Positions 4,264 through 56,327 of a stretch of DNA of 64,000 nucleotides are shown here, one piece after another. The position numbers were made by a program, and so were the translations under genes. Each line of letters begins with the position of its first letter. The first letter of the stretch is position 1. Under the pieces are notes generated by a model. It ran no database searches and was not told the DNA's origin. It worked only from the letters and a program-made list of their open reading frames with translations. Origin of the DNA: a virus; IMG/VR virus record IMGVR_UViG_3300045988_075875; one strand, 5' to 3'.

Positions 4264-5223
4264 TTATTTGGCTTGCACGTCCTCCACATAGCACCAGCTT
4301 TGGGGTGGGCGACCGATAACCCGGCCATCACAGTCCATTTTGGCGTATTGATTTTTAGGGGTATTGCGGAATAACTCTCTGTACGACGGTGCAGAGTTGT
4401 TTTTCTTTTTTGGGTCAGGCTTTTGCACAATGATTATGTACTCATTTACATTTTTAAAGAGAAGATTTGGAGGATAGGGATAGCTCCCGAATATAGGACG
4501 CTGGGAAGTTGAAGATCCCCATCTGCCGCCAGTACCCTTCTTATTCCAAATAATTTGATTGATTAGTGAGAAACCAACAGACTGCGCAATTTTGGTTAAA
4601 TCCGATGCAATAGGGATTGTCACTAACCCATATTCTTTAGTATTTTGATTGACATTTGCAGTAACAATACAAAGCTTTCTACCAGGCATAAGAACACGAT
4701 AGCATTCTCTGACAACACTTTCCATGCTGTCAATGAAATCATCATAATATTCAAATCCACCAATATTTCCAATGTACTCGCCATAGTCTGCTTTGTTCCA
4801 GTAAGGAGGGGATGTAATTACGGCGCCGATACTGTTGTCCGGAATGGAGGCCATATCCAGGCAACTGTGATTGTGAATTACAAAAGCCCCATTTGCATTT
4901 TCGATGTTCTTATTTTGAATGACTTCGAGTAACCGCTGGGTTGAACGCTCATAGTACGTGGAGTTTGTTTCAAAACCTACATACTTTCTGCCGTTACTTA
5001 ACGCCGCTTCGCCAGTTGTACCGGTCCCCGAAAAGGGGTCAAGAATAGTTTCTCCCCAAAAAGAAAACATTCGTAGGAGCCTGTAGGGAATTTCGACAGG
5101 AAAGACCGCAGGATGAACGCTATCGCTAATATTTGCGATATCCCATACCGTCATTGTCCATTCTTTCCATTCTTCGCTTGTTATTTTAGATAGTTCTTTA
5201 ATTTCTTTAGTAATAGTGGCCAT
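4264..5223 (-). CDS. DNA methyltransferase (N4-cytosine/N6-adenine type), motif order FxGxG before SPPY
   Basis: Start set at ATG 5223 (GGAGG RBS; track start is TTG). HPAVFPVEIPYRLLRMFSFWGETILDPFSGTGTT then ITSPPYW; visibly AT-richer than its neighbours. Confidence 0.85.
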   Translation of the reverse strand: MATITKEIKELSKITSEEWKEWTMTVWDIANISDSVHPAVFPVEIPYRLLRMFSFWGETILDPFSGTGTTGEAALSNGRKYVGFETNSTYYERSTQRLLEVIQNKNIENANGAFVIHNHSCLDMASIPDNSIGAVITSPPYWNKADYGEYIGNIGGFEYYDDFIDSMESVVRECYRVLMPGRKLCIVTANVNQNTKEYGLVTIPIASDLTKIAQSVGFSLINQIIWNKKGTGGRWGSSTSQRPIFGSYPYPPNLLFKNVNEYIIIVQKPDPKKKNNSAPSYRELFRNTPKNQYAKMDCDGRVIGRPPQSWCYVEDVQAK

Positions 5224-5238
5224 CCTTTTTACCTCCAA

Positions 5239-8188: not shown

Positions 8189-8359
8189 TTAATTCAAAAA
8201 AATCATCTGGCACAAAGCAAACCCACACTGGAACGCCGCGCCGGTCAACAGCAGCATCAGGATCGCCAGTGCGCCTTTGTCCCAGTCTTTACAGATGCCG
8301 TAACAGGCCCACCCACAAAGGCAGAGCGGAATAAATAGCAGAATCGCCAGTTTAGCCAT
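8189..8359 (-). CDS. small membrane protein (56 aa)
   Basis: MAKLAILLFIPLCLCGWACYG...; two hydrophobic helices; 8-nt overlap with upstream methyltransferase stop. Confidence 0.45.
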   Translation of the reverse strand: MAKLAILLFIPLCLCGWACYGICKDWDKGALAILMLLLTGAAFQCGFALCQMIFLN

Positions 8360-8942
8360 TTTTATTTTCCGCTCCCATCTCCGGCCGCATAAGCGGACGG
8401 TACACCGTCTGAATATCATTCTTCCATGGTGTCAGCCATACGCACCACATCACGTCCATCAGCGGACTTCCCTTCTCTCCGGGCATCCGCTTCTTGAAAA
8501 AGAAATCCGGGCGCCACGTCAGCGGCAGAATGTAGCTGGGCGGGATCTCGTCAAACAGCTTCCGCCGGCACGTTGCGTTCCAATACTGCGACTTGAGCAG
8601 GAACGCAAAAGGCTTGCCCAGCTCCGCTGCTCTGCGGATAAACGCCTCCGCCAGCGAGAAAGGCGGGTTTGTGATGATCCAATCAGCCGCGTCAATGCTG
8701 GACTTCAAGAAGTCCGTCCCATCCAGAATGTCTGTTGCATAGACGGTCTCAAAGTAGGTCTGAAGCACACCAGCCATATCGCCCTCTCCCGTTGCCGGTT
8801 CCCACACGGACGTTGTGCGCGGAAGATTCAAAAAGCGCATAAGTACCACCGTCACATCCGGCGGCGTGGGATAGAAGTCTGACTGACTCCGCCCATACGC
8901 ACTGTTCCCGCCAGCTATCCTGCTTGCATTCAAGCTATCCAT
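8352..8942 (-). CDS. N6-adenine-type DNA methyltransferase (NPPF motif)
   Basis: ATG 8942 (GGAGG RBS). YPTPPDV, EPATGEGDM (motif I-like), IITNPPF (motif IV). Confidence 0.75.
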   Translation of the reverse strand: MDSLNASRIAGGNSAYGRSQSDFYPTPPDVTVVLMRFLNLPRTTSVWEPATGEGDMAGVLQTYFETVYATDILDGTDFLKSSIDAADWIITNPPFSLAEAFIRRAAELGKPFAFLLKSQYWNATCRRKLFDEIPPSYILPLTWRPDFFFKKRMPGEKGSPLMDVMWCVWLTPWKNDIQTVYRPLMRPEMGAENKNG

Positions 8943-8944
8943 AT

Positions 8945-9628
8945 TCAACCTCCCGTAAACAAACTGATCTGCGCCGTGTGTTCCGCAAAGCGCTTTTCCT
9001 GCGCCTGAAAATAGTGAGGGTCGATCTCACACCCAACAAAATCAAAGCCAAGATCATAGGCGGCTATGCGGCTGCTGCCGCTGCCTAAGTGGGTGTCCAG
9101 TATCTTGTCTCCCGGCTTTGCGTACTTCTGCAAAATCCATGTGTATAACGCCACCGGCTTCTGCGTTGGGTGGATGCGCTTCTCATTAAGAGCTTTGTTC
9201 CCCTGTTGGACTGTCCCCTCTGCGATACTCTTCCCCTGGAACATCCCATTCCACATATAGCGGAACAGACGGACGCTTTCAAAGCAGTTCGTCGCCGCAA
9301 TTTCGCAATCGCTAAAGCTGCTCTCCCCATTGCACTTGTCCCACACGATTCGCCCGTGGGAAAACACGAAATCAAAGTAGTTACATCCCCATACGATATA
9401 ATGTTTTGACACTCTGTCCAATTCAGCAAAAAATTCTGCGTCAGGTATATCCCATTTGGGAGACACAGGGTAATCCCGTTTCACCCCAATGGGGCTGATC
9501 TTACAGCCATAATAGCCACGCCGCTCCGGACCGCTGAAATATGGAGGGTCCACCACGGCCAGATCAAACGCCTTGTCCTGCAGCGTCCGCATATACTCCA
9601 TGCAGTCCATGTTATAGGCTACGTTCAA
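8945..9628 (-). CDS. DNA methyltransferase, beta-class N6A/N4C (DPPY ... HPTQKP ... DTHLGSGSS)
   Basis: 227 aa; VVDPPYF at N-terminus, HPTQKPVALY, ILDTHLGSGSS at C-terminus; TTGA-coupled TTG start. Confidence 0.85.
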   Translation of the reverse strand: MNVAYNMDCMEYMRTLQDKAFDLAVVDPPYFSGPERRGYYGCKISPIGVKRDYPVSPKWDIPDAEFFAELDRVSKHYIVWGCNYFDFVFSHGRIVWDKCNGESSFSDCEIAATNCFESVRLFRYMWNGMFQGKSIAEGTVQQGNKALNEKRIHPTQKPVALYTWILQKYAKPGDKILDTHLGSGSSRIAAYDLGFDFVGCEIDPHYFQAQEKRFAEHTAQISLFTGG

Positions 9629-11516: not shown

Positions 11517-11879
11517 TCAGGTCAGAAACAGTTCGCCGTTGATCTCAAGGCTGACGGCCTCTTGTTTCATTTCGCGTTTGATCTTGTGGCAGATGGCGAC
11601 GATCTCGGCGCCGTGGCGCTCGATGTCCTCGGCTGCGGCGTTGCTGTAAACGATGGTGACGGCCTCGCCCACGAGTCCGGCGGACTGGCTCACCCAGTAG
11701 CCGCGGGCCTCGGTAGCGGTGGCACCGCCAAACATGGCGGACAGCTTCGCGGCGACTTCCTCCACCTGCTGCCGGTTGTCGGTGGGGTGGTCGGTGTCGG
11801 TGGTGCTCGGTACATAGATAGCCACGCGGGAGTCCAGACGGACAACGCCGGGGATCGTGTCAAAAAAGCTCTTTTTCAT
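11517..11879 (-). CDS. hypothetical protein
   Basis: 120 aa, GGAGGAA RBS. Confidence 0.65.
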   Translation of the reverse strand: MKKSFFDTIPGVVRLDSRVAIYVPSTTDTDHPTDNRQQVEEVAAKLSAMFGGATATEARGYWVSQSAGLVGEAVTIVYSNAAAEDIERHGAEIVAICHKIKREMKQEAVSLEINGELFLT

Positions 11880-12075: not shown

Positions 12076-12136
12076 TTTGTAATCCTTTCCGGCCCGGTGG
12101 GCCTCCGTGGTTTTCCTCTGTTTTCATTTACCATTA

Positions 12137-12221
12137 TATATGGGTAAACCCCATATTTCAATAGTCAATTCCTACAAAAGTAAACCCCATATTTTGTATA
12201 ATATTTATGGGGTAAACCCAT
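12137..12221. promoter_or_regulatory. operator array plus extended -10 promoter between divergent operons
   Basis: Three copies of GTAAACCC(C)AT in dyads ATATGGGTAAACCCCATAT (12137-12155), GTAAACCCCATATT (12180-12193), ATGGGGTAAACCCAT (12207-12221); TGTATAAT at 12195-12202. Confidence 0.55.
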
Positions 12222-12318
12222 TGTTTTTCTGTTTCCGGCTCCCTATAATAATAGATGTCAAAAGGATAGCACCAAACCACCGGACCGGCGGCCGCTCCGC
12301 CGGGGAAAGGATGTTAAA

Positions 12319-12726
12319 ATGTCGGATTTATTGGAAAGGTACGAGGCCCAATATGGCCCCGTTGCAAGTGGCTACTTGTACACGCTGGGCGGTGATCCTG
12401 CCGCCATCGTGGCGGAGATGGAGCGCACCCAGGAAGCGCCGGAAGCGGACCCGCTCGCGTTTCTGGCTCCGCTGATGCCCACCACCCCGGAACAGGACGC
12501 ACACAACGCCATCATGAAAGAGATCCAGCGGCTCTATTTTCTGCCGATCTCCCGCGCCTCCGCTCTGGCCGTGTGTAACGTGCTGGGCGAGGCAGGCGAG
12601 CTGATCCCCTTTCCCGGCTTGCCGGATTTCCGGTTTAATTCTTGGACTTTTAAAAACGCCTGGAACGATGCCCACCCGGACGAGGCACGGATCACCGTTA
12701 ACGGTGCCGCCATGCTGAGTGTTTGA
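12319..12726 (+). CDS. hypothetical protein
   Basis: 135 aa, AAAGGA RBS, first gene of rightward block. Confidence 0.6.
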   Translation: MSDLLERYEAQYGPVASGYLYTLGGDPAAIVAEMERTQEAPEADPLAFLAPLMPTTPEQDAHNAIMKEIQRLYFLPISRASALAVCNVLGEAGELIPFPGLPDFRFNSWTFKNAWNDAHPDEARITVNGAAMLSV

Positions 12727-12789
12727 CCCCCCAGAACAGCGGCCCAGGATCACCCCGGGCCGCTGAACAGGAAAACGGAGGTTTGCGAA

Positions 12790-13341
12790 ATGGCAAGAGT
12801 CAAGATCACTTTAAAATGCGAGCACTGCGGGAAAGAGTTTGAACACATCCACATGTGCCGCAATTCCACCGAGGCGGGATCTTATGAAGTCTGGGCGCGG
12901 GAAAACCTCGCCACCTGCCCCGCCTGCTACGCAGAACAGAAGAACGCGAAACGAGGCGCGGAGCTTTCCGGCTACATTTCCAGCTTCAGCGACCGGCACC
13001 CGCTGCCGCAAATAACCGGCGTTTCCGAAAAACAAATTTCTTATGCTTCAAGCCTGCGGGAAAAATTCATCCGTGAAAATCTAATGCCGGTTCAGCTTGA
13101 TGTGAACTGTTTTTTTGAAATCGCGGACAAGATCAAGCCGGAAAACTGCGACGAAGCAGGGCGGGATCTCATGCACAAGGCCGCAGCCGATGCCGGGAAG
13201 CCCTTTGAAATCTGGTTTGAAGCGTTCCGGGCGGACCGCCTCCGGCGCTATTTCGGCCTGATCTATGCCGCTGACGCGGACAAAATCGAAACCATTTTTA
13301 CAGAGAACAGCGCATCTAAAATTATTGATGCGCTGAGATAG
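12790..13341 (+). CDS. hypothetical zinc-ribbon protein
   Basis: 183 aa; CEHCGKEF...CPAC; GGAGG RBS. Confidence 0.6.
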   Translation: MARVKITLKCEHCGKEFEHIHMCRNSTEAGSYEVWARENLATCPACYAEQKNAKRGAELSGYISSFSDRHPLPQITGVSEKQISYASSLREKFIRENLMPVQLDVNCFFEIADKIKPENCDEAGRDLMHKAAADAGKPFEIWFEAFRADRLRRYFGLIYAADADKIETIFTENSASKIIDALR

Positions 13342-13358
13342 GACAGGAGGAAAAACAC

Positions 13359-13664
13359 ATGATCGCCCATCTTTACAAAATCCCTTCAACTTTTCGGAAC
13401 GTTCCCGACGCGGTGCAGGTTCGCGCGGTTCCCTTTGAAAATTTTCCCGGCACCTGGCTACATGCAACGCTGAATTTGCCCGACGGTCTCCGCGTGGCCG
13501 ACTCAAAATACGGAGAAGGGGCATTTATCACGGAGTCCGGCGAGGTCATCGGCGAGGCATACGCCGACCCCGAACAGATCGCCGGAAACGAACTGAAAGG
13601 CCGCGTTACCGTGCGGGACTCCGCCGGAAATTTTCTTGTTGATACCGTTGTCATCTGGCAATGA
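13359..13664 (+). CDS. hypothetical protein
   Basis: 101 aa, AGGAGG RBS. Confidence 0.6.
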   Translation: MIAHLYKIPSTFRNVPDAVQVRAVPFENFPGTWLHATLNLPDGLRVADSKYGEGAFITESGEVIGEAYADPEQIAGNELKGRVTVRDSAGNFLVDTVVIWQ

Positions 13665-13686
13665 TCCATGAAAGCGAGGTAAAACC

Positions 13687-13890
13687 ATGCCCAGACCCAG
13701 AACCAGCGCCACCAGAACAGACGCCCAAAGACGGGCGGAAAACAAGTATAAAAACAAGGCGCAAATTGTGATTGCCTGCCGGATGGACCGCCAGACGGGG
13801 GAACGCTATAAGGCCCTTTGCGCCGAACGCGGCACCACGCCCAACGCCGAAATCAAAGCCTTTATTTTGTCCCAGCTTGGCGAACAGTAA
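13687..13890 (+). CDS. small basic protein, ribbon-helix-helix-like
   Basis: 67 aa; basic N-terminus then IVIACRMDRQTGERYKALCAERGTTPNAEIKAFI. Confidence 0.5.
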   Translation: MPRPRTSATRTDAQRRAENKYKNKAQIVIACRMDRQTGERYKALCAERGTTPNAEIKAFILSQLGEQ

Positions 13891-13906
13891 GAAGGAGGCC
13901 GCGCAC

Positions 13907-14191
13907 GTGAAAGAAGAATATTACATCCCGAACACAAGCGGCGAAAAAATTTCTTTTGACGGAAAAGAATACATTTTTGCGGAAGATTTGCACGATGAAA
14001 TTTCCCCGCCACAAAACCCGGATGACCCGGCGGATCGTGCACAAATTTCCTACCGTGCGCAAGTAATTGACCCGGCCGCGCCGGAACGTCTGCTTGAGCT
14101 TTATTATGCCCCTATCTTAGTATGTGATGATCCGCCATTCGATTACAAAACAGCCGAGATCATCGGAATTATCGAAACGGAAACCGACTAA
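13907..14191 (+). CDS. hypothetical acidic protein
   Basis: GTG start after GAAGGAGG RBS; upstream part of track ORF 13772..14191 overlaps the previous gene. Confidence 0.45.
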   Translation: MKEEYYIPNTSGEKISFDGKEYIFAEDLHDEISPPQNPDDPADRAQISYRAQVIDPAAPERLLELYYAPILVCDDPPFDYKTAEIIGIIETETD

Positions 14192-14206
14192 CCCCAAAAC
14201 GCAGAA

Positions 14207-14244
14207 CAGCGACCCGGAAAAAATCCGGGCCGCTGCTTTTTTTA
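14207..14244. terminator. terminator shared by convergent genes
   Basis: CAGCGACCCGG-aaaaaaat-CCGGGCCGCTG then TTTTTTT. Confidence 0.7.
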
Positions 14245-14448
14245 TTCTGCTTTTTCTTCCGGCTGATATTCCATGATCTCACCCGGCTGCACGTTCAGTG
14301 CTGCACAGATTTTGCATAAAACATCCGTTGTCACGCTATCCCCTTTCCCCAGTTTGGCCAGCGTAGGCGATGAAATCCACTGCAAGAGATCCGTTTTTTT
14401 CATCCCCCGGCGGGCCAGCAGGTCAAACAACTTAAAATATCGCATCAT
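14242..14448 (-). CDS. XRE-family HTH regulator
   Basis: 68 aa; MKKTDLLQWISSPTLAKLGKGDSVTTDVLCKICAALNVQPGEIMEY. Confidence 0.75.
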   Translation of the reverse strand: MMRYFKLFDLLARRGMKKTDLLQWISSPTLAKLGKGDSVTTDVLCKICAALNVQPGEIMEYQPEEKAE

Positions 14449-14469
14449 CTTTTTTCACCTCGCCATATT

Positions 14470-14600
14470 TAGCATATCTTAACACCGGCAAAATGTCAAT
14501 AAAAAAAACATTTGCAAGTGCTAAAATAACTGTTGACTTTTATATTAGTATATGCTAATATAATATCAACGAAAGCAAAGCGAATTTTCACACCGTCAAA
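14470..14600. promoter_or_regulatory. AT-rich promoter/operator region with 22-bp near-palindrome
   Basis: TTGACT-17-TAATAT; palindrome TATATTAGTATATGCTAATATA (20/22 symmetric); extra TTAGCATAT half-site near HTH gene start. Confidence 0.55.
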
Positions 14601-14619
14601 AGCCAAGGAGGCCGAGATC

Positions 14620-14712
14620 ATGAGTTTTCACCTTTTTATCCTCGTTCTGGGCGCTGGCACCTTTGCCCGCCTGATGTTCCGCGTGGTGGATCTCATCGAG
14701 GCCCGCCGCTAA
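14620..14712 (+). CDS. 30-aa hydrophobic peptide
   Basis: AAGGAGG RBS; MSFHLFILVLGAGTFARLMFRVVDLIEARR. Confidence 0.35.
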   Translation: MSFHLFILVLGAGTFARLMFRVVDLIEARR

Positions 14713-14736
14713 ATCAAAATCAAGGAGGATCACAAA

Positions 14737-14913
14737 ATGACCACTTATAAAACCCGCAAAGCCGCCGCCCGTGATGCGGCGATCATAGCCCAGCAGGAAG
14801 CCGCCGAACAGGTGCAAAGCTGGGAAGAAGTCGCAGAGACCGCCGACTGTCTGGAACGGCTGGCCCGCCGTTTCGGTCTCCTGCGGGAGTTCCGGGAAAA
14901 CGGCCTTATCTGA
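14737..14913 (+). CDS. small hypothetical protein (58 aa)
   Basis: AAGGAGG RBS; MTTYKTRKAAARDAAIIAQQEAAEQVQSWEEV... Confidence 0.45.
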   Translation: MTTYKTRKAAARDAAIIAQQEAAEQVQSWEEVAETADCLERLARRFGLLREFRENGLI

Positions 14914-14934
14914 ACAAAGAAGGAGGACCCCACC

Positions 14935-15129
14935 ATGAAAATTGAAATCCGTTCCCTTTTTTCCGGCTGGCAGACCGTAGACCGGGAGACCGCCGCCCGT
15001 TTTGTTTCTCACCTGCTCCGCAATATGTCCGCGATCCCTGCCGCCCAGCGTCCCGCCTATATCGAGGCGCACCGGCTCCGGGGCTGCACCGTCTCCGACC
15101 TGCTCCACCAGAACAGCGCCACCAACTAA
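14935..15129 (+). CDS. hypothetical protein
   Basis: 64 aa, GAAGGAGG RBS. Confidence 0.55.
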   Translation: MKIEIRSLFSGWQTVDRETAARFVSHLLRNMSAIPAAQRPAYIEAHRLRGCTVSDLLHQNSATN

Positions 15130-15143
15130 AAGGAGGTTCACCC

Positions 15144-15773
15144 ATGTTTAACAGTCTTTACCATGCCGAGATCGGCGGCGGCTACACCCTCCGCCGGAAA
15201 GTCATTATCAACGCCGCGGACCTGCGGCCCCTGGGCGGTCAAATCGAGGTTGCCGCCATCATCGAGAACGGGGACGAGCTGAACAGCACCACCGTTACAA
15301 CGGAGGCCGCTGCGCTGGCCGCGTTTCATTCCATGGTCCAGCAGTACGCCGAACCCCTGCAAAAAGCTGTGGACGCCGCCGGACTGGTTCTGGGCCGGAA
15401 ATATACCCTTGTATATCTCTCCGAGTTCGGTTTTCCCATTGCGGAGAAAATCACCTTTCACGGCTACACCCTCACCACCTACGCCCAGCACGCCGACGTT
15501 GTGCGCCTGACCTACACCCCATACCGTAAGCGCTCCACACGCGGCCGGCTGTTTTTAGGCTCGTCCTCCCTGCTGATCTTCAACGGCTGGCAGGATCTCC
15601 CAGAACAGGCCACCCATGAAACCCTGAAGGAGGACGAGAAAGTCAAGATCACCCGCAGTAAATACGGCTGCTTTTCCGCTTCCTATATCGAGGATGCCGC
15701 CGCCCTGCTGAAGGACCCGGTTCTGATCTTCAAAAGCTACCAGACCGGCGCCAACGGCAAAGTTTACGCCTGA
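15144..15773 (+). CDS. hypothetical protein
   Basis: 209 aa, AAGGAGG RBS. Confidence 0.6.
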   Translation: MFNSLYHAEIGGGYTLRRKVIINAADLRPLGGQIEVAAIIENGDELNSTTVTTEAAALAAFHSMVQQYAEPLQKAVDAAGLVLGRKYTLVYLSEFGFPIAEKITFHGYTLTTYAQHADVVRLTYTPYRKRSTRGRLFLGSSSLLIFNGWQDLPEQATHETLKEDEKVKITRSKYGCFSASYIEDAAALLKDPVLIFKSYQTGANGKVYA

Positions 15774-15876
15774 ACAGCCACCCCGGACACCTTGGAGCCG
15801 CCGCACCGATAAAAGCGACGGCACCCCAGAAAGCCAAAATCTACACATTCAAAACACATTTCAGGAGGATTTTACC

Positions 15877-17373
15877 ATGACTGACAAGAACAACCGCACC
15901 ATGAAAACCGGCGACGTGGTGGAGATCACCGGCGCATACTTCAAGAATGACAACGGCCTTTACTTCGTCGAGCACACCCCCGGCGATCCGAATTGGAGCG
16001 GCCGCGATCACTGCCTCCGGCGCATCAAGCGCAACGGCGAACTCAGCACCGCAAAGGATAACATTTGCTTCTGGCCCATTTCCGCCTTTGTGAACAGCCG
16101 GGACAAGCGGGCCGCCGCGAACCAGTGGAATCAGGAGCATGCGGAAATCGAAATCAAGGCCTTCCCCCACACCACCCATATTGCGGCCTACTTCGCAGAC
16201 GAGGCGGAAAAGCAGGACAAGGAGGCCCAGCGCTGCATCTGGAACCTTGGCGAGGATCACGAGGTAGTCAAGGCCATCCAGGCGACGCGCAACTTCCTCC
16301 GCTCCATTTCCGACGGCCTCCGGGCCGAACAGCCCACCCCCGCCGACACCCAGCAGCCCGAACAGCAGACCCCCGCCACCGGCGCAGGCGCAGAAGCGCC
16401 CGCGGAACAGCTGGAGGCCACCACCGCAGAACAGGCAGAACAGCCCGCCCCGGAAAATCGACCTGCTACGGTCCCGACCTACTACGAGATCAGCGAGGAA
16501 ACCGCCCGGAACGCTCACTATTGCGTCCACATGAGCGACTACAAACCCGGCAGCGCCACCGCCGATTATCGAAATTCCGTGAACAGCGCCGCCGAACTGG
16601 TGGAACAGCAGAAGGACCGCGTTAGCACTTTTTACCATGACAAGCTGGACGCCCTGCTTGACCGCTACGCCCGCCGCCTTGCCCAGTGGACGAACGATTA
16701 CAACCGCAACCAGGCCAGCTATCCCAGCCAGTTTATCGCCGGGGCGGGTAACTTCAATATGCGCAAGCACAACCGCCAAATGTCCCGCGAGGGATCCCTG
16801 TGGGAGGAATACCGGCAGATCGAGGCGATTCTGGACAAGATCCGCAGCGTCGGCACCGGCCCGGTAGACCTTGCCGACCCCCACGCCCGCGAAATGCTCA
16901 CCGAGCGCCTGAACAGCCAACGCCAAATGCTGGAGGATGCCAAGACCGCAAACGCCTACTATCGCAAGCACAAAACGCTGGAAGGCTGCCCCGGCTTTAC
17001 GTCTGAACAGGCCGCGAACCTCACCGACCCGAACAGCTTTGATATTCGCGTTCACGGTTCCCCCTTCCCCGCTTACGAGCTGGCCAGCATCCGGGGCAAA
17101 ATCGAGCGGGCAGAACAGCGCCTCGCGGAGCTTGACCGCAGAGAACAGCAGGCCGCCGAGCCTCAGACCGGCACCGCCTTTGACGGCGGCCAGATCGTCC
17201 GCAATATCGACCTGAACAGACTCCAAATCCTCTTTGATGCCATTCCCGACGCCGACACCCGCGCCGCCCTGAAGCAAAACGGCTTCCGCTGGTCTCCGAA
17301 AAATCAGGCATGGCAGCGCCAGCTCACCGACAACGCCGAACGCGCCGCCCGTCAGGTCCTCCGCCTTGCCTGA
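15877..17373 (+). CDS. large hypothetical protein, C-terminal part resembles DUF3560-type plasmid/ICE/phage proteins
   Basis: 498 aa, AGGAGG RBS; Q/E/A/P-rich linker; C-terminal ...ALKQNGFRWSPKNQAWQRQL. Family assignment from memory only. Confidence 0.6.
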   Translation: MTDKNNRTMKTGDVVEITGAYFKNDNGLYFVEHTPGDPNWSGRDHCLRRIKRNGELSTAKDNICFWPISAFVNSRDKRAAANQWNQEHAEIEIKAFPHTTHIAAYFADEAEKQDKEAQRCIWNLGEDHEVVKAIQATRNFLRSISDGLRAEQPTPADTQQPEQQTPATGAGAEAPAEQLEATTAEQAEQPAPENRPATVPTYYEISEETARNAHYCVHMSDYKPGSATADYRNSVNSAAELVEQQKDRVSTFYHDKLDALLDRYARRLAQWTNDYNRNQASYPSQFIAGAGNFNMRKHNRQMSREGSLWEEYRQIEAILDKIRSVGTGPVDLADPHAREMLTERLNSQRQMLEDAKTANAYYRKHKTLEGCPGFTSEQAANLTDPNSFDIRVHGSPFPAYELASIRGKIERAEQRLAELDRREQQAAEPQTGTAFDGGQIVRNIDLNRLQILFDAIPDADTRAALKQNGFRWSPKNQAWQRQLTDNAERAARQVLRLA

Positions 17374-17470
17374 ACAGCGGCAAAAACCCCCTTGGCCCAC
17401 CCTGCTACAATGAAATTAAGAACTGAACAGCCCAGCCCCGGAGGTCACGAGGGCATGAAAGGACAACCCC

Positions 17471-17686
17471 ATGTTTATGGTTTACTTCAAAGGCCCCAGA
17501 GACAAACAGCATAAGCCCATGAGCCTGAACACCGGCGAGCTGTTTAATCGCCTCGTTTATGCGCCCGTCTACAATGACGATCTTCTCCCCGCCGTGAAGT
17601 CATGGATCGACCTGAACAAGAAGAACGCCCCGGATTGTTCGATCCAGTGCCGCGTCCCCGGCACCTCGAAAATCCTATATGCCTGA
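17471..17686 (+). CDS. hypothetical protein
   Basis: 71 aa, AAAGGA RBS. Confidence 0.55.
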   Translation: MFMVYFKGPRDKQHKPMSLNTGELFNRLVYAPVYNDDLLPAVKSWIDLNKKNAPDCSIQCRVPGTSKILYA

Positions 17687-17712
17687 ACAGCCGCACAGAA
17701 AGGAGCGCAACC

Positions 17713-18198
17713 ATGAAAACCGCCGGATATTGGGAGTGCAGAAATGAGATTATCGCCGCGCGCCTCCCCACCCCGCACAAGTACGAACCGTTTACCGAGC
17801 TTTTTGACGTGGATAAGCTCGACGCTATCCGCGACAAATACGGCGTTGACCTTTACCGCGAGTGCTACACAGACGTAGCCCGCGAGGTCATGGCCGATGC
17901 GATAAATGCACAGAAGGAAGCCCGTGAAAAAATGACTTATTCTGAAAAAATCGCCGAAGTCAAGAAGGTCGCGGTCAACTGCCAAATAACTGGAGGCTTG
18001 CTTGACCGTGGATATTGGTATGGCGAAAATCCGTATGCCGATCATCTGATCGAGTGTGCGCTGCTGTGGGACCTTTTTCCTGAAACAGTTGCTGATTTTG
18101 AAAACTTTTGCAGTTTCCGCAGATCCGATTATGCCATTCTCAGACTGAGCAAAAAAGCCAAACGTGAAATAGGAGGTACAACCCATGCTGAACACTGA
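17713..18198 (+). CDS. hypothetical protein
   Basis: Start at ATG 17713 (AAAGGAG RBS), MKTAGYWECRNEII... Confidence 0.55.
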   Translation: MKTAGYWECRNEIIAARLPTPHKYEPFTELFDVDKLDAIRDKYGVDLYRECYTDVAREVMADAINAQKEAREKMTYSEKIAEVKKVAVNCQITGGLLDRGYWYGENPYADHLIECALLWDLFPETVADFENFCSFRRSDYAILRLSKKAKREIGGTTHAEH

Positions 18199-18877
18199 AC
18201 AGTCCCTCACCTGCGTTTTGCAGCTCGTCCACGGACTGGACGAGGACGGAGCCGCCATTTATACCGCCGTCAGCAAAAACCCCTATGAATGGAAAAGCGC
18301 CGACGGCCCCATCCCCCGGCTGTATTTCTTAGAACAGGATCTCCGCCGCACGTTGGTGGAGGAAGCTGCCAGCCGCATCTGCGACGCAGCCGTGCGCATG
18401 AACAGCCAACGCCCCAATGAACAGGGCTTCTGGATCGACGAGGAAGGCAAGCAGTGCGTCTGCGACGGGCACCGGGGCTTCCGCCTGAACAGCCCCATAG
18501 AGCTGACCGCCGCGCCGGAACTAAGCGCAGACGGTTCCCGGTTTAACCTGGCGCAGATCATCGCCCCCATCCGCAAGAACACCCTGCGCCTCACCCTTCC
18601 CACTGTGGCGGAGGTCCGGGCGCAAATCAAAACGGACCGCGCGGAATGGGCCGCCAAGCGCCGCCGCAAGGGCGAGACCTTCAAAGCCAGTTATGATTTC
18701 GGCCCCGGCCTCCCCAGTGTCGATGCCAACTATCTGATCGACTTTCTTCAGCTGTTCCCGGACGGCGAAGCGTTCACCTCTGAACAGAAGCCCTATATCA
18801 CCCCCATCTATTTCCGGTCCGCCGACGGTGAAGGCATTCTCTGCCCCATCCGCAAGGCCACCGAAGCCGCCGCCTGA
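18185..18877 (+). CDS. hypothetical protein
   Basis: 230 aa, AGGAGG RBS. Confidence 0.6.
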   Translation: MLNTEQSLTCVLQLVHGLDEDGAAIYTAVSKNPYEWKSADGPIPRLYFLEQDLRRTLVEEAASRICDAAVRMNSQRPNEQGFWIDEEGKQCVCDGHRGFRLNSPIELTAAPELSADGSRFNLAQIIAPIRKNTLRLTLPTVAEVRAQIKTDRAEWAAKRRRKGETFKASYDFGPGLPSVDANYLIDFLQLFPDGEAFTSEQKPYITPIYFRSADGEGILCPIRKATEAAA

Positions 18878-18903
18878 ACAGCGGCGCAGGAAGGAACCGT
18901 CCC

Positions 18904-19332
18904 ATGAATGATAAAGCTATTATGAAGTACAACGCATTGATTGATGATCTTGCTTCGCTTGCCAAAGAGTCGCATGATTCCCGAGAGTCTATCGTCTGCA
19001 CGGAGGCGTCAGGATGGCTCAAGCATCTCTTCGACAAAAGCGAACGGCTTTCGATGGAGCTGAAGCACACGGAAGAAGTCGCCGCAAGCGCCAAGTCTGA
19101 AAAGTTCAGTCTGCAATCTTTTATCCTCGCGAACCTCGTTCAACCGAATCAGCAGGTGATCCTGTATGAATATACAGGTGTCCAGACTATGTGCCAATCT
19201 TGGCTCGGCAAGTTTTGTGGAATCCCAGATTCTTATGTCCACCGCACTGTGGATAAAGTTTTTGTCCCAGCCTACCCGGATATGTTGCCTTTCAACTCCA
19301 CCCTTTACATTCTTTTGGCCCCGGAAACCTAA
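18904..19332 (+). CDS. hypothetical protein (AT-richer)
   Basis: 142 aa, GGAAGGA RBS. Confidence 0.55.
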   Translation: MNDKAIMKYNALIDDLASLAKESHDSRESIVCTEASGWLKHLFDKSERLSMELKHTEEVAASAKSEKFSLQSFILANLVQPNQQVILYEYTGVQTMCQSWLGKFCGIPDSYVHRTVDKVFVPAYPDMLPFNSTLYILLAPET

Positions 19333-19381
19333 AGTCCCTATCCCCAACAACATTTGATTTTTATAGGAGGATGAATCGGAA

Positions 19382-19711
19382 ATGCAAAAAATTGTTTTGA
19401 ACGGCATGACCTTTGACGGCGCATCCGTCCTTCGGGCCGTGGAGCAGGTGGACCTGTTACCCTGTGGCGGTGAAGGTATGACCTGGAATCCGTGGCAGAT
19501 CGCAACCCCGGAGGAATATGCCATGCGCCTTCAAAAGATCAATTCGGCTCACTGGGATGCGCTGGATGTTGGCGAGATCCAGCCGGGTCCTTGTCTCTCT
19601 GCGCGGGAGATCGTCAGAGGCGGATGGAAGTTTTTATATCAGGTCGATGGACGTGGAGACTGGCAGTCTCAATGCTTTACTGTATGTGAAGCGGTTCTTA
19701 AGAAGTCCTAA
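19382..19711 (+). CDS. hypothetical protein
   Basis: 109 aa, AGGAGG RBS. Confidence 0.55.
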   Translation: MQKIVLNGMTFDGASVLRAVEQVDLLPCGGEGMTWNPWQIATPEEYAMRLQKINSAHWDALDVGEIQPGPCLSAREIVRGGWKFLYQVDGRGDWQSQCFTVCEAVLKKS

Positions 19712-19856: not shown

Positions 19857-19929
19857 GGGCGAAAATTGTGCGAACAGGGTTTTTGGCTTGTCCTCTGTTC
19901 TTCCGGTTCAACTCCGGTTTCGCTCACCA
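19857..19929 (+). ncRNA. tRNA-like element (good acceptor stem, T-arm and CCA; aberrant D/anticodon region)
   Basis: GGGCGAA...CCGG-TTCAACT-CCGG-T-TTCGCTC-A-CCA; 7-bp acceptor pairing (one G-U); middle folds only as GAACAG/CTGTTC stem with 16-nt loop. Confidence 0.3.
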
Positions 19930-20039: not shown

Positions 20040-20113
20040 GCGGATATAGTTCATCGGCAGAACGGCGGCTTCCCAAGCCGCGAAGGTGGGTTCGATTCCC
20101 ATTATCCGCTCCA
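20040..20113 (+). tRNA. tRNA-Gly (anticodon CCC)
   Basis: Hand-folded cloverleaf: GCGGATA/TATCCGC acceptor, GTTC/GAAC D-stem, GCGGC-TTCCCAA-GCCGC anticodon arm, GTGGG-TTCGATT-CCCAT T-arm, encoded CCA. Confidence 0.85.
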
Positions 20114-20657
20114 AGGGTGCACGAAGCGCCCTGCATGGATCGCAAAGCCTCCTGAATGTGTATGACAGCCCGGAAAGACGGGCCGCCACATCACCCGCCA
20201 TGGCGCAAACAAGGCGGGATCACGCAGACGTCCAACCGATACTTCTGTCCTTTCCACCGGGAGCCGGGGACCTCTCCGGCCGTCTGCACCATGCCCGCCC
20301 ACATAAGAGGTGGTTACTCTATAAAAAACCGTAGTGGGAATGAAACCTCCATGTCTGGCAGTGGAGTCGGCGGGTTGATACAGCCGCTATCGGGATGGTT
20401 TTCTCAGAGACACTTGAGCAACCTGACAGCCGGGAAAGACCGGCATCTATATGCAGACGTCCAAGCCGCGGACGATCACGTGGGGAGTTGGGGGCATCTC
20501 CAACCGTCTGCACCACATCCAGCGCCGTGAGAAGTATACACTCACAAACGGGTTGCCCGGAGATGGGCGCGGCAGGGCAACAGAAACGTGTACCTATGGG
20601 GGCCAACCGCAGGCAGCCGACACGCAGCGGTGACAGTCTGGAAAGACAGACAAACAT
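20114..20657 (+). ncRNA. candidate large structured ncRNA between two tRNAs (ROOL/GOLLD-like context; class unverified)
   Basis: 544 nt with no credible ORF; three TGACAG-stem-GAAAGA-stem hairpins (20163, 20424, 20631); duplicated modules closed by GCAGACG/CGTCTGC helices. Confidence 0.45.
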
Positions 20658-20732
20658 AGGGGTGTAGCCAAGCGGTAAGGCAAGGGACTTTGACTCCCTC
20701 ACGCGCTGGTCCGAATCCAGCCATCCCTGCCA
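20658..20732 (+). tRNA. tRNA-Gln (anticodon UUG), atypical T-loop TCCGAAT
   Basis: AGGGGTG/CATCCCT acceptor (one G-U), AGGGA-CTTTGAC-TCCCT anticodon arm, GCTGG-TCCGAAT-CCAGC T-arm, encoded CCA. Confidence 0.75.
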
Positions 20733-20760: not shown

Positions 20761-21036
20761 ATGAACAAGACTGAACTGATCGCCGCCGTGGCGGAGCGTT
20801 CCGGCCACACCAAGCACGATACCGCCATCATGATGGATGCCGTGTTCACCGTCATTGAGGAATCCCTGCTCAACGGCAGCGAGGTCAAAGTCCCCGGCTT
20901 CGGCAAGTTCGCCGTGAAGCACCGGGAAGCACGGGTGGGGAAAGACCCCCGCACCGGCGAGGAAAAGGAATTTCCCGCCAAGACGGTTGCGGTGTTCCGC
21001 CCCGCAAAGCCCCTGAAGGACGCCCTGAACGGCTGA
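20761..21036 (+). CDS. hup: HU-family DNA-binding protein
   Basis: 91 aa; MNKTELIAAVAE...GFGKFAVKHREARVGKDPRTGEEKEFPAKTVAVFRPAKPLKDAL, canonical HU/IHF fold sequence. Confidence 0.9.
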   Translation: MNKTELIAAVAERSGHTKHDTAIMMDAVFTVIEESLLNGSEVKVPGFGKFAVKHREARVGKDPRTGEEKEFPAKTVAVFRPAKPLKDALNG

Positions 21037-23796: not shown

Positions 23797-24876
23797 ATGC
23801 TCAAGAGTTACTATTTCGACGCGGCGGCCCACGAACCGCCTTCCCCTGCCGCGATCAAGGCGTTCACCCGCGCCCTGCCCCTTGGCAACCCAAGCGCCCT
23901 TCACGCCTGCGGCGTTGCCGCAAAGATCGCCTTGGAGGAAGCCCGCGCCTCCATCGCCCAGGACCTGAACTGTCTCCCGGAGGAAGTTTACTTCACCAGC
24001 GGAGCAACGGAAGCCTGCAACTGGATGATGAAAAGTCTGAGTGCCTACACCGGCAAGCTGGACTTCCCCCGCCATTACGAGCACCACTCCGTTTTGGAAT
24101 ATCCCCCCGTGGATCATCCCCACCGCACAGACCGCACCGGCTTCACCCACATGATGGCCAATAACGAGACCGGCGAGACTTACGACATTCTCTCCAGACG
24201 GCGAAACGCCCCCAACGCCCTGTTCGCCTGTGACGCGACGGCGGCGGTCGGCCAGATCCCCGTGGACTTCAAGGCCCTTGGCGTGGACTATCTGGCTTTC
24301 GGCGCTCACAAGTTCGGCGGCATCTCCGGCATCGGCTGTCTGATCGTCAAGAAAGACACGCCCCTGATTTCCATGATTCGCGGCGGAGATCAGGAGTGGG
24401 GCAAGCGCGGCGGCACCGAAAGCGTGGCCCTCGCCTGCGCCATGGCAGCGGCCCTCCATGAGCGCATGGACAATATGCTCTCCAACATGAAGCGGATCGC
24501 CCGTTGCCGCGACCTGCTGATTTCCTATTTGTTGAGGTTCGTCCCGGATACCTATGTCAACGGCCCCTATACCCCCGGTGACGTGCTCCTCCGTCTCCCC
24601 GGAAACGCCAACCTCTCTTTCCTTGGCGTGGAATCGCAGGCCCTTGTCATGGCCCTGTCTGCGGAGGGCGTGTACGCTTCCTCCGGCTCCGCCTGTACCA
24701 GCGGGGAGGCTGACGGAAGCTATGTCCTCCGGGCCATGGGCTACCCCGCCAACCGCGCCCGCTCCGCCGTCCGTTTCACTCTCCCCTATACCGTCACCGA
24801 GGATGATATTCTGGGCGCCGTCCCTCTGATCGTCAGCGCCGTGGAAAATCTCCGCCGCCTGACCCCTACCCCCTGA
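23797..24876 (+). CDS. cysteine desulfurase (NifS/IscS-like class V aminotransferase)
   Basis: 359 aa; PLP-lysine context AFGAHKFGGISGIGCLIV; catalytic Cys loop SSGSACTSG; AAGGAGG RBS. Confidence 0.8.
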   Translation: MLKSYYFDAAAHEPPSPAAIKAFTRALPLGNPSALHACGVAAKIALEEARASIAQDLNCLPEEVYFTSGATEACNWMMKSLSAYTGKLDFPRHYEHHSVLEYPPVDHPHRTDRTGFTHMMANNETGETYDILSRRRNAPNALFACDATAAVGQIPVDFKALGVDYLAFGAHKFGGISGIGCLIVKKDTPLISMIRGGDQEWGKRGGTESVALACAMAAALHERMDNMLSNMKRIARCRDLLISYLLRFVPDTYVNGPYTPGDVLLRLPGNANLSFLGVESQALVMALSAEGVYASSGSACTSGEADGSYVLRAMGYPANRARSAVRFTLPYTVTEDDILGAVPLIVSAVENLRRLTPTP

Positions 24877-24909: not shown

Positions 24910-25917
24910 ATGGGAAGAACCTCTGCGCAGGAGCGCCGGGTCATGTCGGCCTTAGACTCATGGCTCCGCAACGTGCAGGCCAGCGGCGCGGCGGAACGCA
25001 CCGTCACCGCCTACGCTGCCGTCACAAACAGCTTTTATTCCTTCCTCGTGGAAAGCGGCCTTTCCACCGAGGAACCCACCTTCACCACCATGCAAGCCTA
25101 CCGGGATCACCTCTTTGACCGTGGCCTCTCCCCTGTCTCCGTCCGGTATCATCTGGTGGTCCTCCGCTCCTTCTTCACCTACGCCAGCTCCCCCGAACTG
25201 GGCGAGGATCGCTTTTATGAGCAAAACCCTGTTTCCCTCTACCTGATGCCCTCCCTCCGCAAATTGGGAAAGCGCCCCTATGACGTGCTGCTCACCGATG
25301 AGCAGGTCTGCAAGCTCTGGAGGGATTCCCCAGTCCGCACCACCCACCCGGAGAACTGGCCCCGGAATTACGCCATCGTGATCCTGCTGCTGACCACCGA
25401 GCTGCGCAACGCCGAACTGCGGGCCTTGACCCCGGCGGACATCGACTTGGAGGAAGCCGCCCTCCGTGTGGAACACGGCAAGGGCGATAAATTCCGGGTG
25501 GTGGACCTGCCAGACATCGCCGTGATTGCCCTCCGCCATTACATTGCCAGCGGCATCCGCCCGGATGATCTCCCGGATACCGCCCCCCTGTTCGGCACCC
25601 TCCGTTCCGGGGAATGGAAGGCCGGCACAAAACAGTGGCTTTCGGAGCTGGTGGAGCGTCACGTCCGTTCCGTCACCGGCGTTCCGGACATCCGCAGCCA
25701 CGATCTCCGCCATGTCGGCTCCCGCTTGGATCTCAACTCCGGTATGCCCGAAAACGAACTGCAAGCCAAATTGGGCCATGCCAGTCCCGTCACCACCCAG
25801 CGTTATTCCGGGCGGCTCATGGACCGTTCCGGCCGGAAAAGCGCCAAGAAGGTCTTTGCCGAACGGGACTTGCAAGCCAAGCGCAGTGCCGACAAACTTG
25901 CCTCCTTTTCCGCCTGA
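24910..25917 (+). CDS. tyrosine recombinase, XerC/XerD-like
   Basis: 335 aa; N-terminal SAM-like core-binding domain, LLLTTELRNAE, HDLRHVGS, LGHASPVTTQRY. Confidence 0.8.
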   Translation: MGRTSAQERRVMSALDSWLRNVQASGAAERTVTAYAAVTNSFYSFLVESGLSTEEPTFTTMQAYRDHLFDRGLSPVSVRYHLVVLRSFFTYASSPELGEDRFYEQNPVSLYLMPSLRKLGKRPYDVLLTDEQVCKLWRDSPVRTTHPENWPRNYAIVILLLTTELRNAELRALTPADIDLEEAALRVEHGKGDKFRVVDLPDIAVIALRHYIASGIRPDDLPDTAPLFGTLRSGEWKAGTKQWLSELVERHVRSVTGVPDIRSHDLRHVGSRLDLNSGMPENELQAKLGHASPVTTQRYSGRLMDRSGRKSAKKVFAERDLQAKRSADKLASFSA

Positions 25918-26018: not shown

Positions 26019-26666
26019 ATGATTTACGGCTATATCCGCGTCTCCACCGACAAGCAGACCTTGGAAAATCAGCGCCATATCATCCTCAATTACTGTGAAG
26101 TAAATGAGCTCCACATAGACGGCTGGATCGAGGAAACCATCTCCGGCACCAAGGCCCCGGACAAACGAAAGCTGGGCCAGCTTCTCCGCCATGTCCAGCC
26201 GGGAGACACCATCCTCTGTTCCGAGATTTCCCGCCTTGGCCGCAGCCTGTTTATGGTCATGTCCATCCTCTCCCTCTGCATGAGCAAGCGCGTCAGTGTC
26301 CACACCATCAAGGACGGCTTTGACCTCAGTGACGATCTCCAATCCAAGGTTCTTGCCTTTGCCTTTGCCCTTGCCGCCGAGATCGAGCGTCAGATGATCT
26401 CCCAGCGGACGCGGGAAGCGCTGGACCTCCGCCGCAGTCAGGGCGTCACCCTTGGCCGTCCAAAGGGTGCTTTGGGCAAGCACACCAAACTCTCCGACTA
26501 TGAATCCACCATCCGCGTTCTGATCGAGCAGGACAATTCCTATGCGGAGCTGGCTCGATTGTTCCATGTGGACCGTTCCACCATGAAACGCTTCTGCGAT
26601 GCGCGGGACATCAAACGCCCCTTTTCCCGCAGCGCCGCCGGTTTCATTTCCAACGTTGCGGGATAA
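26019..26666 (+). CDS. small serine recombinase (resolvase/invertase family, Hin/Gin/Cin-like)
   Basis: Start ATG 26019: MIYGYIRVSTDKQTLENQ (catalytic Ser), SEISRLGRS, C-terminal HTH YAELARLFHVDRSTMKRF; 215 aa is too small for a large serine integrase. Confidence 0.85.
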   Translation: MIYGYIRVSTDKQTLENQRHIILNYCEVNELHIDGWIEETISGTKAPDKRKLGQLLRHVQPGDTILCSEISRLGRSLFMVMSILSLCMSKRVSVHTIKDGFDLSDDLQSKVLAFAFALAAEIERQMISQRTREALDLRRSQGVTLGRPKGALGKHTKLSDYESTIRVLIEQDNSYAELARLFHVDRSTMKRFCDARDIKRPFSRSAAGFISNVAG

Positions 26667-27084: not shown

Positions 27085-27105
27085 CCGGGAAGGAGCGTGG
27101 CTGAT

Positions 27106-27798: not shown

Positions 27799-27810
27799 AG
27801 GGGTGGCTCT

Positions 27811-27900
27811 ATGGAAAACACCTGCGTATGCTGCGGAGCCATCATCCCCGAAGGCTTACAGGTCTGTCCGATCTGTCAACGAACGTGGCCCACATTTTGA
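27811..27900 (+). CDS. 29-aa Cys4 zinc-ribbon mini-protein A
   Basis: MENTCVCCGAIIPEGLQVCPICQRTWPTF; homologous mirror copy on minus strand. Confidence 0.5.
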   Translation: MENTCVCCGAIIPEGLQVCPICQRTWPTF

Positions 27901-27933
27901 AAAGCCGGAGGGAAATCCCCTCCGGCTTTTTTT
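27901..27933. terminator. bidirectional terminator at the centre of the convergent fibre cassettes
   Basis: AGCCGGAGGG-aaatc-CCCTCCGGCT then TTTTTTT. Confidence 0.8.
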
Positions 27934-56318: not shown

Positions 56319-56327
56319 GGCTCCTCC

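Follow-up and report, generated by a model that had tools for sequence, protein, structure and literature searches.

A dense, strand-specific array of the word GAACAG in two accessory operons of a gut phage is placed by selection on DNA or RNA rather than on proteins

Chi, KOPS, stoperators and uptake sequences are arrays of short polar words, and each of them has led to a molecular machine with a directional way of reading DNA or RNA. Words of the KOPS/SRS type are 7–8 nt long and rich in G and A, and the start-associated sequences of Cluster K mycobacteriophages are strand-specific, 13 bp long, include the ribosome-binding site and are found in intergenic DNA only. The known Chi sequences of Firmicutes are 5–7 nt long and species-specific (PMC5959072; PMC4614115). 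For the stoperators of mycobacteriophage L5 the correlation between site orientation and direction of transcription is a defining feature, and their function is lost on inversion (PMC9283540). Phage T7 escapes EcoP15I with 36 CAGCAG sites that are all arranged head-to-tail (PMC12707154), and cleavage by Type III enzymes requires inverted sites (PMC3413136; PMC6158743). Here we describe an array of the hexamer GAACAG in the IMG/VR virus record IMGVR_UViG_3300045988_075875, of which we analyzed a stretch of 64 000 nt (the window). The array lies in a rightward block of genes at positions 12300–18900, and its strand bias, density and placement can be compared with those of the systems named above.

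We counted 38 copies of GAACAG on the plus strand of the block, spread from 12490 to 18881, and a single copy on the minus strand (18752..18757); the original prediction, which had pointed out the enrichment, gave about 37 and one by hand. The octamer CTGAACAG occurs 13 times in the block, on the plus strand only and at exactly the 13 positions proposed earlier, and its reverse complement CTGTTCAG does not occur. An order-1 Markov model built from the block predicts 1.85 ± 1.4 copies of GAACAG and 0.10 of CTGAACAG, where chance expectations of about 2 and 0.1 had been assumed, and an order-3 model built in the same way predicts 11.5 ± 3.3 and 1.4 copies. GAACAG is the most over-represented 6-mer of the block and CTGAACAG its most over-represented 8-mer. 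The density of the hexamer amounts to 5.7 per kb in the block compared to 0.78 per kb for sense copies in the late genes (about 5.6 and 0.7 in the earlier estimate). The copies are distributed over two plus-strand operons: operon 1 (12319..14191), with genes A–E and nine copies including intergenic ones, ends at a bidirectional terminator (14205–14237), and the core of operon 2 (14737..18877), with genes G, H, I, J, K, L and M, carries 29. The whole span of operon 2 is 14737–19711, and it is read from a promoter-like site at 14533–14561. The density of copies peaks in gene J (15877–17373, plus strand), which encodes a DUF3560 protein and contains 14 internal copies plus one at its stop, and in gene M (18185–18877, plus strand) with six internal copies plus one at its stop. 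Five copies are clustered in a low-complexity linker of gene J (16327..16443, plus strand).

To define the word itself we collected 366 distinct contexts from the window and 40 relatives, which resulted in the consensus C (73%), W (76%), GAACAG, C (61%). The core is exact, as each of the 18 one-mismatch variants occurs 0–5 times, about what base composition predicts. Within −45 to +45 only positions −2, −1 and +1 are informative beside the core, and a few isolated positions (−25, as well as 6, 8 and 18 nt beyond the core) are slightly above controls. We searched the same range for a second element of the promoter type and observed no −10-like partner; an array of promoters, for instance with the −35 element TGAAC of the extracytoplasmic function type, was rejected for want of such a partner at a fixed distance. 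A base-pairing small RNA was rejected as well. The complement of the word is missing from all non-coding regions of the genome, and a pairing partner of fixed sequence would not account for the W at −1, which favours a protein reader over base-pairing with a fixed RNA. A putative match of 7 nt between the complement and the A-loop sequence of 23S rRNA is taken to be due to chance. That GAACA matches DRACH, the consensus for MT-A70 enzymes, was regarded as a coincidence at the level of about 3–4%. A search of the window against Rfam gave two tRNAs, one int-alpA RNA and no other match, and an analysis of RNA structure gave no signal for the word.

Regarding the reading frames of the 38 copies, 19 are read as GAA-CAG (Glu-Gln), 10 as xxG-AAC-AGx and one in the third frame, while four are intergenic and four run across a stop codon without any other reading; 29 of the 38 lie within coding sequence and nine in intergenic spacers or over stop codons. 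The word is not a peptide repeat, as had been stated, since Glu-Gln and Asn-Ser or Asn-Arg are joined by these other contexts. We compared the coding copies with synonymous shuffles performed within each gene, which preserve the protein, each dipeptide and the codon usage. The shuffled genes contained 10.7–10.8 ± 2.4 copies compared to 30 or 31 observed, according to the start chosen for gene E, and 0 of 2000 shuffles reached the observed number. Codon- and dipeptide-preserving shuffles of this kind had been suggested in the original prediction as a control, and they did not reproduce the enrichment. When the order of the codons was permuted, 3.2 coding copies remained. All 19 Glu-Gln pairs of the block are spelled GAA-CAG although GAA accounts for only 58% of the Glu codons and CAG for only 76% of the Gln codons, and no hexamer of the block is more depleted than GAGCAG (none observed, 6.6 expected). 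The proteins themselves contain an excess of the two dipeptides, with 19 Glu-Gln pairs compared to 6.6 expected and 13 Asn-Ser pairs compared to 3.9. In the conserved C-terminal domain of gene J the positions covered by the word read EQA, EQR, VNS, LNS and LNR in this clade, whereas homologues of J at 39–67% identity have EAA, QAR, VDE, LQK and ADR at the same positions. From these differences to the distant homologues it follows that the protein sequence has been altered to create the word. An artefact of codon usage or of a peptide repeat is ruled out by the synonymous shuffles, by the use of all three frames and by the copies in spacers and over stop codons. The array is thus placed by selection on DNA or RNA and not on proteins. 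This bears out the earlier proposal of a frame-independent, polar signal selected at the nucleic-acid level, for which the shuffles, the word-creating amino-acid changes and the higher retention in relatives described below all speak.

The 11-mer GCCTGAACAGC occurs six times, on the plus strand, and four of these occurrences span the TGA stops of gene I (15768..15778), gene J (17368..17378), gene K (17681..17691, followed after about 8 nt by the ribosome-binding site of gene L) and gene M (18872..18882). The other two, inside gene J (16907..16917) and gene M (18483..18493), are read as Arg-Leu-Asn-Ser. Gene L ends in the same manner with CTGAACAG (18195..18202, plus strand), where the copy at 18197 forms the stop of gene L and at the same time encodes Glu-Gln among the first codons of gene M, which overlaps gene L. 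The context TGA-ACAG, which had been noted for four consecutive genes, is therefore found in consecutive genes as described, the number being five (I, J, K, L and M, with stops at 15771, 17371, 17684, 18196 and 18875). Intergenic copies had been noted too, at 12763 and 17423, and we counted four in total on the plus strand. Two are located between genes A and B (12732..12772), namely CAGAACAGC at 12732 and CTGAACAGG at 12763; a 9-bp hairpin has the CAGC and GCTG ends of these two copies at its base, and the copy at 12763 abuts the ribosome-binding site of gene B. In the terminator hairpin at the end of operon 1 (14202..14237) the 5′ arm is formed by a further CAGAACAGC, and CTGAACAGC is found between genes J and K (17423..17431). 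At most gene junctions (7–8) a copy is located 0–25 nt upstream of the next ribosome-binding site. All cheap opportunities for the word are used in this way: each Glu-Gln pair, the stop codons and the spacers before ribosome-binding sites.

We observed the array in 40 of 40 close relatives scored, whose J proteins have 76–94% amino-acid identity and which contain 15–45 plus-strand copies in the same block. At least 20 further contigs fetched by means of the integrase carry it too, including phages with an integrase only 49% identical, and some of these further human-gut metagenome contigs have several-hundred-fold coverage. In phages with J homologues of at most 67% identity, mostly of the Oscillibacter type, the array is absent and no equivalent polar word was found. 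The only candidate for an analogous word in the Oscillibacter-type phages (J at 39–67%) was CCGCCG, with 58 copies compared to 30 expected; it was discarded, as an excess that does not extend to longer words fits codon repeats for Pro and Ala. In an alignment of J from 31 relatives, frame-0 copies of the word are retained at 0.89 compared to 0.63 for control hexamers (p = 0.002). Within the clade single sites in gene J turn over while their total stays at 11–16. Homologues of M at 46–47% identity contain two to three copies compared to 0.6–0.7 expected and still end in TGA-ACAG. We conclude that a strong selection for many exact sense-strand copies acts at the nucleic-acid level throughout the clade and is continuing in a particular set of accessory genes of long residence.

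The gene content of the block varies considerably among the relatives. Genes A–H are present in 1–23 of 41 relatives, so that operon 1 is highly mosaic, and genes I–M are kept. The protein of gene K (17471–17686) shows 97–100% identity among relatives, and I, M, the N-terminal domain of J and a 120-aa protein (11517–11879) also count among the conserved phage proteins. No internal copies occur in the genes with low GC content at third codon positions (low-GC3 genes E, L, N and O), nor in gene K. For 18 alternative cargo gene families at the position of operon 1 in relatives we counted five copies in 5.7 kb compared to 3.7 expected. An enrichment driven by location alone was ruled out on this basis. 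A density of 2.05 per kb obtained for ‘non-homologous’ DNA was set aside, as it is dominated by insertions in J and by divergent M genes. This distribution is also where the view that the word has no present function finds its support. The array would then be a sequence signature left over from a genome in which the core genes resided earlier, or it would have arisen by biased repair or a gene-conversion drive, which would agree with enrichment in the long-resident high-GC3 core genes (A–D, G–J and M) and not in newer cargo, as well as with the distant J homologues lacking the word. We regard this view as unlikely given the exactness of the core, whose variants remain near background, and the retention of copies above control hexamers, including the one at the stop of the 46–47% identical M homologues. 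The complete use of the word at Glu-Gln pairs and its placement over five consecutive stops and in spacers argue in the same direction, and we know of no mutational process that writes a 9-nt word onto one strand.

The window is 100% identical to a 73.2-kb human-gut metagenome scaffold; together with the missing 9.3 kb it closes to a circular map, about 73.3 kb in length, of a temperate siphophage that binned genomes place in Oscillospiraceae. This genome contains 44 plus-strand and 50 minus-strand copies of GAACAG, of which 6 and 49 lie outside the block. In the late genes (28–57 kb, minus strand, including tape measure and portal) we found 21 sense copies compared to 16.4–16.9 expected from codon usage, whereas antisense copies are depleted (1 compared to 9.0–9.3 expected). 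For Leu-Phe these genes use CTG-TTT in 14 cases and CTG-TTC in a single one although other NNG-TTC pairs are not avoided, and CTGTTC is the 44th most depleted of the 4096 hexamers. There is hence a selection against the reversed orientation in the highly expressed late genes. The early-left recombination operon, also on the minus strand and containing Cro-like, antirepressor, YqaJ, DUF1351, RecT, SSB and replication-organiser genes, has 12 sense copies compared to 6.3 expected and no antisense copy, and 4 of 1000 shuffles reach 12. The minus-strand cargo at 5.8–12 kb is neutral for the word, and 24 further relatives have almost no plus-strand copies over about 16 kb of minus-strand genes. Taken together, the orientation tracks transcription on both strands, with 38:1 in the plus-strand block and 12:0 in the minus-strand early-left operon. 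It flips at about 19–20 kb, and both orientations converge there. Base composition was recorded along the same coordinates: the GC skew of the plus strand is negative across the 64 kb regardless of gene orientation, so that the sense strand of the block is C-rich and G-poor, and the AT skew flips with gene orientation, a pattern that fits replication in a single direction.

The best reading of these observations, which we hold tentatively and with less than even confidence, is that GAACAG is an orientation-dependent recognition site read during or after transcription. A sequence-specific nucleic-acid-binding factor would recognise the exact (C-W-)GAACAG(-C) in a single orientation with respect to the direction of transcription, its substrate being either RNA, nascent or mature, or the non-template strand of the DNA. 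It would act positively on the sense transcripts of both accessory operons, possibly by guarding them against premature termination or decay, or the transcripts might soak up an RNA-binding host factor. A positive reader on RNA or on the non-template strand would explain why sense copies are enriched on both strands, why antisense copies are depleted in late genes and why stop codons and spacers before ribosome-binding sites are used. A protein as the reader, RNA and not DNA as its target and a positive sign of the effect are what we infer. Among the options listed in the original prediction, a site for a protein acting on the transcript fits best. Somewhat more doubtful still is the possibility that the transcripts serve as a multi-site platform for a sequence-specific RNA- or single-stranded DNA-binding factor, be it as a sponge or decoy for a host factor or as a dispersed anti-termination or anti-decay signal. 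The accessory operons that carry the word are probably devoted to counter-defence. In full-text searches of the literature we found no mention of CTGAACAG and nothing relevant for GAACAG, in agreement with the earlier remark that no element with this sequence had been described, and nothing relevant was found for DUF3560 either.

Several observations weigh against a site read with transcription. The plus-strand genes at 20.7–27 kb show no sense enrichment (0 sense, 4 antisense), and in relatives the plus-strand genes at 20–26 kb contain 9 distinct plus and 15 distinct minus contexts. Nearly all genes outside the block are on the minus strand, so that a polarity linked to transcription and one linked to the DNA strand are not fully separable. 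Genes N and O at the end of operon 2, genes E, K and L and the alternative cargo are not enriched, from which it follows that some genes in the transcripts do without the word. The predicted RNA accessibility of the word sites is no higher than that of controls. Finally, no reader protein was found, as comparison of the block proteins with Pfam, PHROGs, NCBIfam, PADLOC and PDB sequences was uninformative except for DUF3560/LPD25 in gene J; weak matches to ribbon-helix-helix and zinc-ribbon proteins were observed, and single-sequence AlphaFold models of M and I were of such low confidence (predicted local distance difference test scores of 37–38) that they were not used for fold searches.

A reading at the level of the DNA strand would be that GAACAG is the AddAB/RecBCD sequence of the host or a different signal by which an exonuclease is attenuated or recombination is stimulated, with the dense plus-strand cluster in genes J–M halting an enzyme that travels leftward and stimulating exchange in the adjacent mosaic cargo. 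This agrees with a word that is short, exact and orientation-dependent (18 variants with 0–5 copies each, 38:1), with an enrichment limited to one phage clade, as adaptation to a host would give, and with recently acquired genes that lack the word in the way horizontally acquired DNA lacks Chi. It also agrees with the 49 of 55 copies outside the block that lie on the minus strand, which is G-rich throughout the window, as expected for Chi on leading strands, with the depletion of the wrong orientation in late genes, and with the location of the variable cargo (genes A–H) just beyond the dense cluster in the direction of the enzyme. We nevertheless consider this reading improbable, at roughly one chance in five, as the sense orientation is not positively selected in the late genes (27 kb) and the plus-strand genes at 20–26 kb show no clear polarity. 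Moreover, DNA ends are not known to arise rightward of the block, the packaging genes being placed by synteny near 54–60 kb, neither a cos or pac site nor a cluster of contig ends was found at 19–20 kb, and the phage has a RecT/YqaJ recombination pair of its own. The Chi/AddAB and orienting-sequence options of the original prediction are not supported in the form given there: outside the block the sense frequency equals the prediction from codon usage, and the plus-strand gene region at 20–26 kb in relatives shows no clear polarity at the DNA level. The idea of a protein acting on the entering strand is likewise unsupported because the block sits in the middle of the map, between the tail-fibre genes and the integrase, and not at a genome end.

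The array is interrupted between the two operons (14242..14736, minus strand), where no copy is found from 14210 to 14805. The gap contains a Cro/C1-type helix-turn-helix gene (14242–14448, minus strand, 68 aa) and divergent promoters with palindromic operators, and a search for the word in the operators and promoters of both operons gave no copy in 12076–12318 either. Operator-like repeats of their own are present in both promoter regions (12139–12226 and 14469–14558): GTAAACCCCATATTT occurs in three copies with spacings of 36 and 32 nt between divergent promoters, and a palindrome TTAGCATAT...ATATGCTAA flanks the operon-2 promoter. A hydrophobic open reading frame of 30 codons in the leader of operon 2 (14620–14712) is called as a gene in relatives too. 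These promoter regions bear on the reading that a phage protein binds the asymmetric word in duplex DNA and blocks RNA polymerase in one orientation, as stoperators do, which would keep the accessory operons silent in lysogens or prevent convergent late transcription from running into them. Such a role would fit the correlation of site orientation with transcription on both genome arms, the nine copies in intergenic spacers or across stop codons, and the exact 6-bp core with weak flanks, which suits a single recognition helix. Against it stand the absence of the word from both promoter regions, where the unrelated repeats are found instead, the location of 29 of the 38 copies inside genes, a density about 10 times that of the L5 sites and the depletion of the reversed orientation in late genes, which it leaves unexplained. 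No monomeric two-domain repressor was found, the helix-turn-helix gene of the block is present in 1 of 41 relatives, and no link was found between the word and either this Cro/C1-type protein (68 aa) or the CI-like protein (150 aa, 2303–2755). We therefore rate a blocking protein as quite unlikely, below the recombination signal.

The depletion of one orientation in late genes beyond the prediction from codon usage would also fit an orientation-sensitive host defence (Type III, Type ISP, Type IIL or BREX-like) whose target is GAACAG, the bias reflecting selection against inverted site pairs or a use of the block as a decoy. Such systems use asymmetric 6-bp sites, and the word is an asymmetric and exact hexamer with an A at position 5; the phage moreover has several DNA methyltransferase genes and strong restriction-site avoidance. 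With both orientations present in bulk (38 on the plus strand of the block, 49 on the minus strand elsewhere) the sites are not head-to-tail, and the genome would be fully cleavable by a system of the Type III kind. Escape predicts depletion or neutrality rather than a 3- to 10-fold enrichment accompanied by amino-acid changes, and the flank preferences are unexpected for such enzymes. A defence target is in our view hardly probable, about as little as the absence of a present function. Classical restriction-site avoidance was excluded for GAACAG, since it is not depleted on both strands. Other words of this genome behave differently: GAAGAC/GTCTTC (BbsI-type Type IIS site) occurs once in 64 kb, at 7341, with none in the late genes compared to 21.6 expected, CCWGG is found 20 times compared to about 96 and CTGGAG twice compared to 19, and a strong depletion is seen for CCGCGG, CGGCCG and GCCGGC too. 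For GAAGAC and CCWGG it affects both strands, whereas GAACAG is enriched in the block and neutral on the sense strand of late genes. The depletion of GAAGAC, CCWGG and the other sites is classical restriction-site avoidance, which points to the restriction-modification repertoire of the host. The methyltransferase genes are located at 4264–5238, 8352–9628 and 59605–60189, all on the minus strand, and their number varies among relatives; one is CcrM-like, one N6/N4 methylase is apparently split over two open reading frames, and one MT-A70 gene is found beside an HNH endonuclease.

Further features of the operons concern their junctions and ends. The K–L (17681–17717) and M–N (18872–18908) junctions are paralogous over 37 nt with 78% identity and share GCCTGAACAGC, a ribosome-binding site and ATGAA. 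Genes L and N, which follow these junctions, are low-GC3 cassettes, as is gene E, so that the two junctions may be entry points for new genes. In some relatives gene J contains an LPD25 insertion. DUF3560 and LPD25 domains are linked to the polyvalent proteins of phages and conjugative elements. Just past the terminators of operon 2 a hairpin of the form GAACAGGG-N13-CCTCTGTTC (19872..19900, plus strand) combines one GAACAG with one CTGTTC, and relatives keep it at the same spacing of 23 nt.

The block belongs to a long accessory region that is bounded by the integrase and the tail fibres; the integrase, of the tyrosine type, is encoded together with a CI-like repressor at 2.3–3.9 kb. We searched for integrated copies of the phage by means of the CI-like protein, the right-end protein, the J homologue, the integrase and HU, and found only phage-sized contigs (66–82 kb). 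Downstream of the block, tRNA-Gly(CCC) and tRNA-Gln(UUG) (20040–20732) are separated by a non-coding spacer of 545 nt that has no Rfam match, and they are followed by a phage HU gene (20761–21036), whose nearest non-phage relatives are at most 57% identical. A cysteine desulfurase of the NifS/IscS/DndA type (23797–24876, plus strand) covers only the C-terminal two thirds of the profiles, and no partner genes for DNA sulfur modification were recognised near it. A serine recombinase (26019–26666, plus strand) scores 280 bits compared to an NCBIfam cutoff of 272 for the Mpi ‘master DNA invertase’ family, and its neighbours are an Xer-like tyrosine recombinase (24910–25917, plus strand) and tail-fibre genes (27097–28858). 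Six of 11 full-length metagenome contigs from relatives break about 19–24 kb past the integrase, which we judged, without alignment, to be near these recombinases; breaks beside an invertase-like gene suggest an invertible or variable host-range segment. Integron-like cassette sites were ruled out, as the Xer-like recombinase reaches 33 bits compared to a cutoff of 265 for integron integrases and no attC-like structure was found. Just upstream of the portal, at the position expected for terminase, two proteins of 617 and 321 aa (54465–57293, minus strand) have no match to a terminase family in Pfam, PHROGs or NCBIfam; judged by position, they may form a very divergent packaging module. The int-alpA RNA (51621–51686, minus strand) scores 53.7 bits compared to an Rfam gathering score of 35.8 and lies in the head-gene region, far from both integrase genes.

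The array sits in an uncultured and abundant lineage of gut phages and is replicated across many independent metagenomes, and the polyvalent-protein or DUF3560-type genes of the block may act in establishment or counter-defence. If its reader were found, Oscillospiraceae would gain their first Chi-like or orienting sequence, or else a new mode by which phages control particular operons would emerge; a simple sequence marker for this phage–host pairing would be obtained as well. Should the transcripts indeed act as a binding platform, they would represent a kind of cis-code not described before in phages, with an exact 9-nt word and proteins bent to fit it.

Among the known systems the gp71 stoperators of L5 and other Cluster A mycobacteriophages resemble the array in having many asymmetric sites over transcription units, an orientation tied to transcription and some copies at gene ends and in intergenic spacers. 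Stoperators, however, are 13 bp long, number about 20–35 per 50-kb genome, are almost all intergenic and share their sequence with the early-promoter operator, whereas GAACAG has a 6-bp core (9–11 bp with flanks), reaches 5.7 per kb, is found inside genes in three quarters of its copies, is confined as an array to one 6.6-kb block and is absent from promoters. Chi sequences of RecBCD/AddAB are likewise short, exact and species-specific oligomers with one active orientation that are absent from recently acquired DNA, although they are G-rich and occupy the whole host genome at modest density, while the enrichment of GAACAG is local, follows gene orientation and is absent in late genes after correction for codon usage. 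The EcoP15I sites of T7 are also an asymmetric hexamer nearly confined to one strand of the phage transcription unit, but they keep a single orientation genome-wide at about 0.9 sites per kb, compared to two opposed sets of GAACAG (38 plus, 49 minus) and a block far above the expectation from codon usage. The KOPS and SRS of FtsK/SpoIIIE and architecture-imparting sequences share with the array polar, purine-rich short words that converge on one point, here at about 19–20 kb with the Xer-like recombinase gene at 24910–25917. These signals are chromosome-scale, sparse and independent of gene orientation, whereas GAACAG shows no clear polarity in the plus-strand genes at 20–26 kb and a density that is orders of magnitude higher. 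Start-associated sequences are similar as strand-specific conserved words just upstream of many start codons, but GAACAG lies upstream of the ribosome-binding site at 7–8 junctions and is otherwise mostly inside genes. Each known family considered here thus differs from the GAACAG array in at least one of its defining features that we tested.

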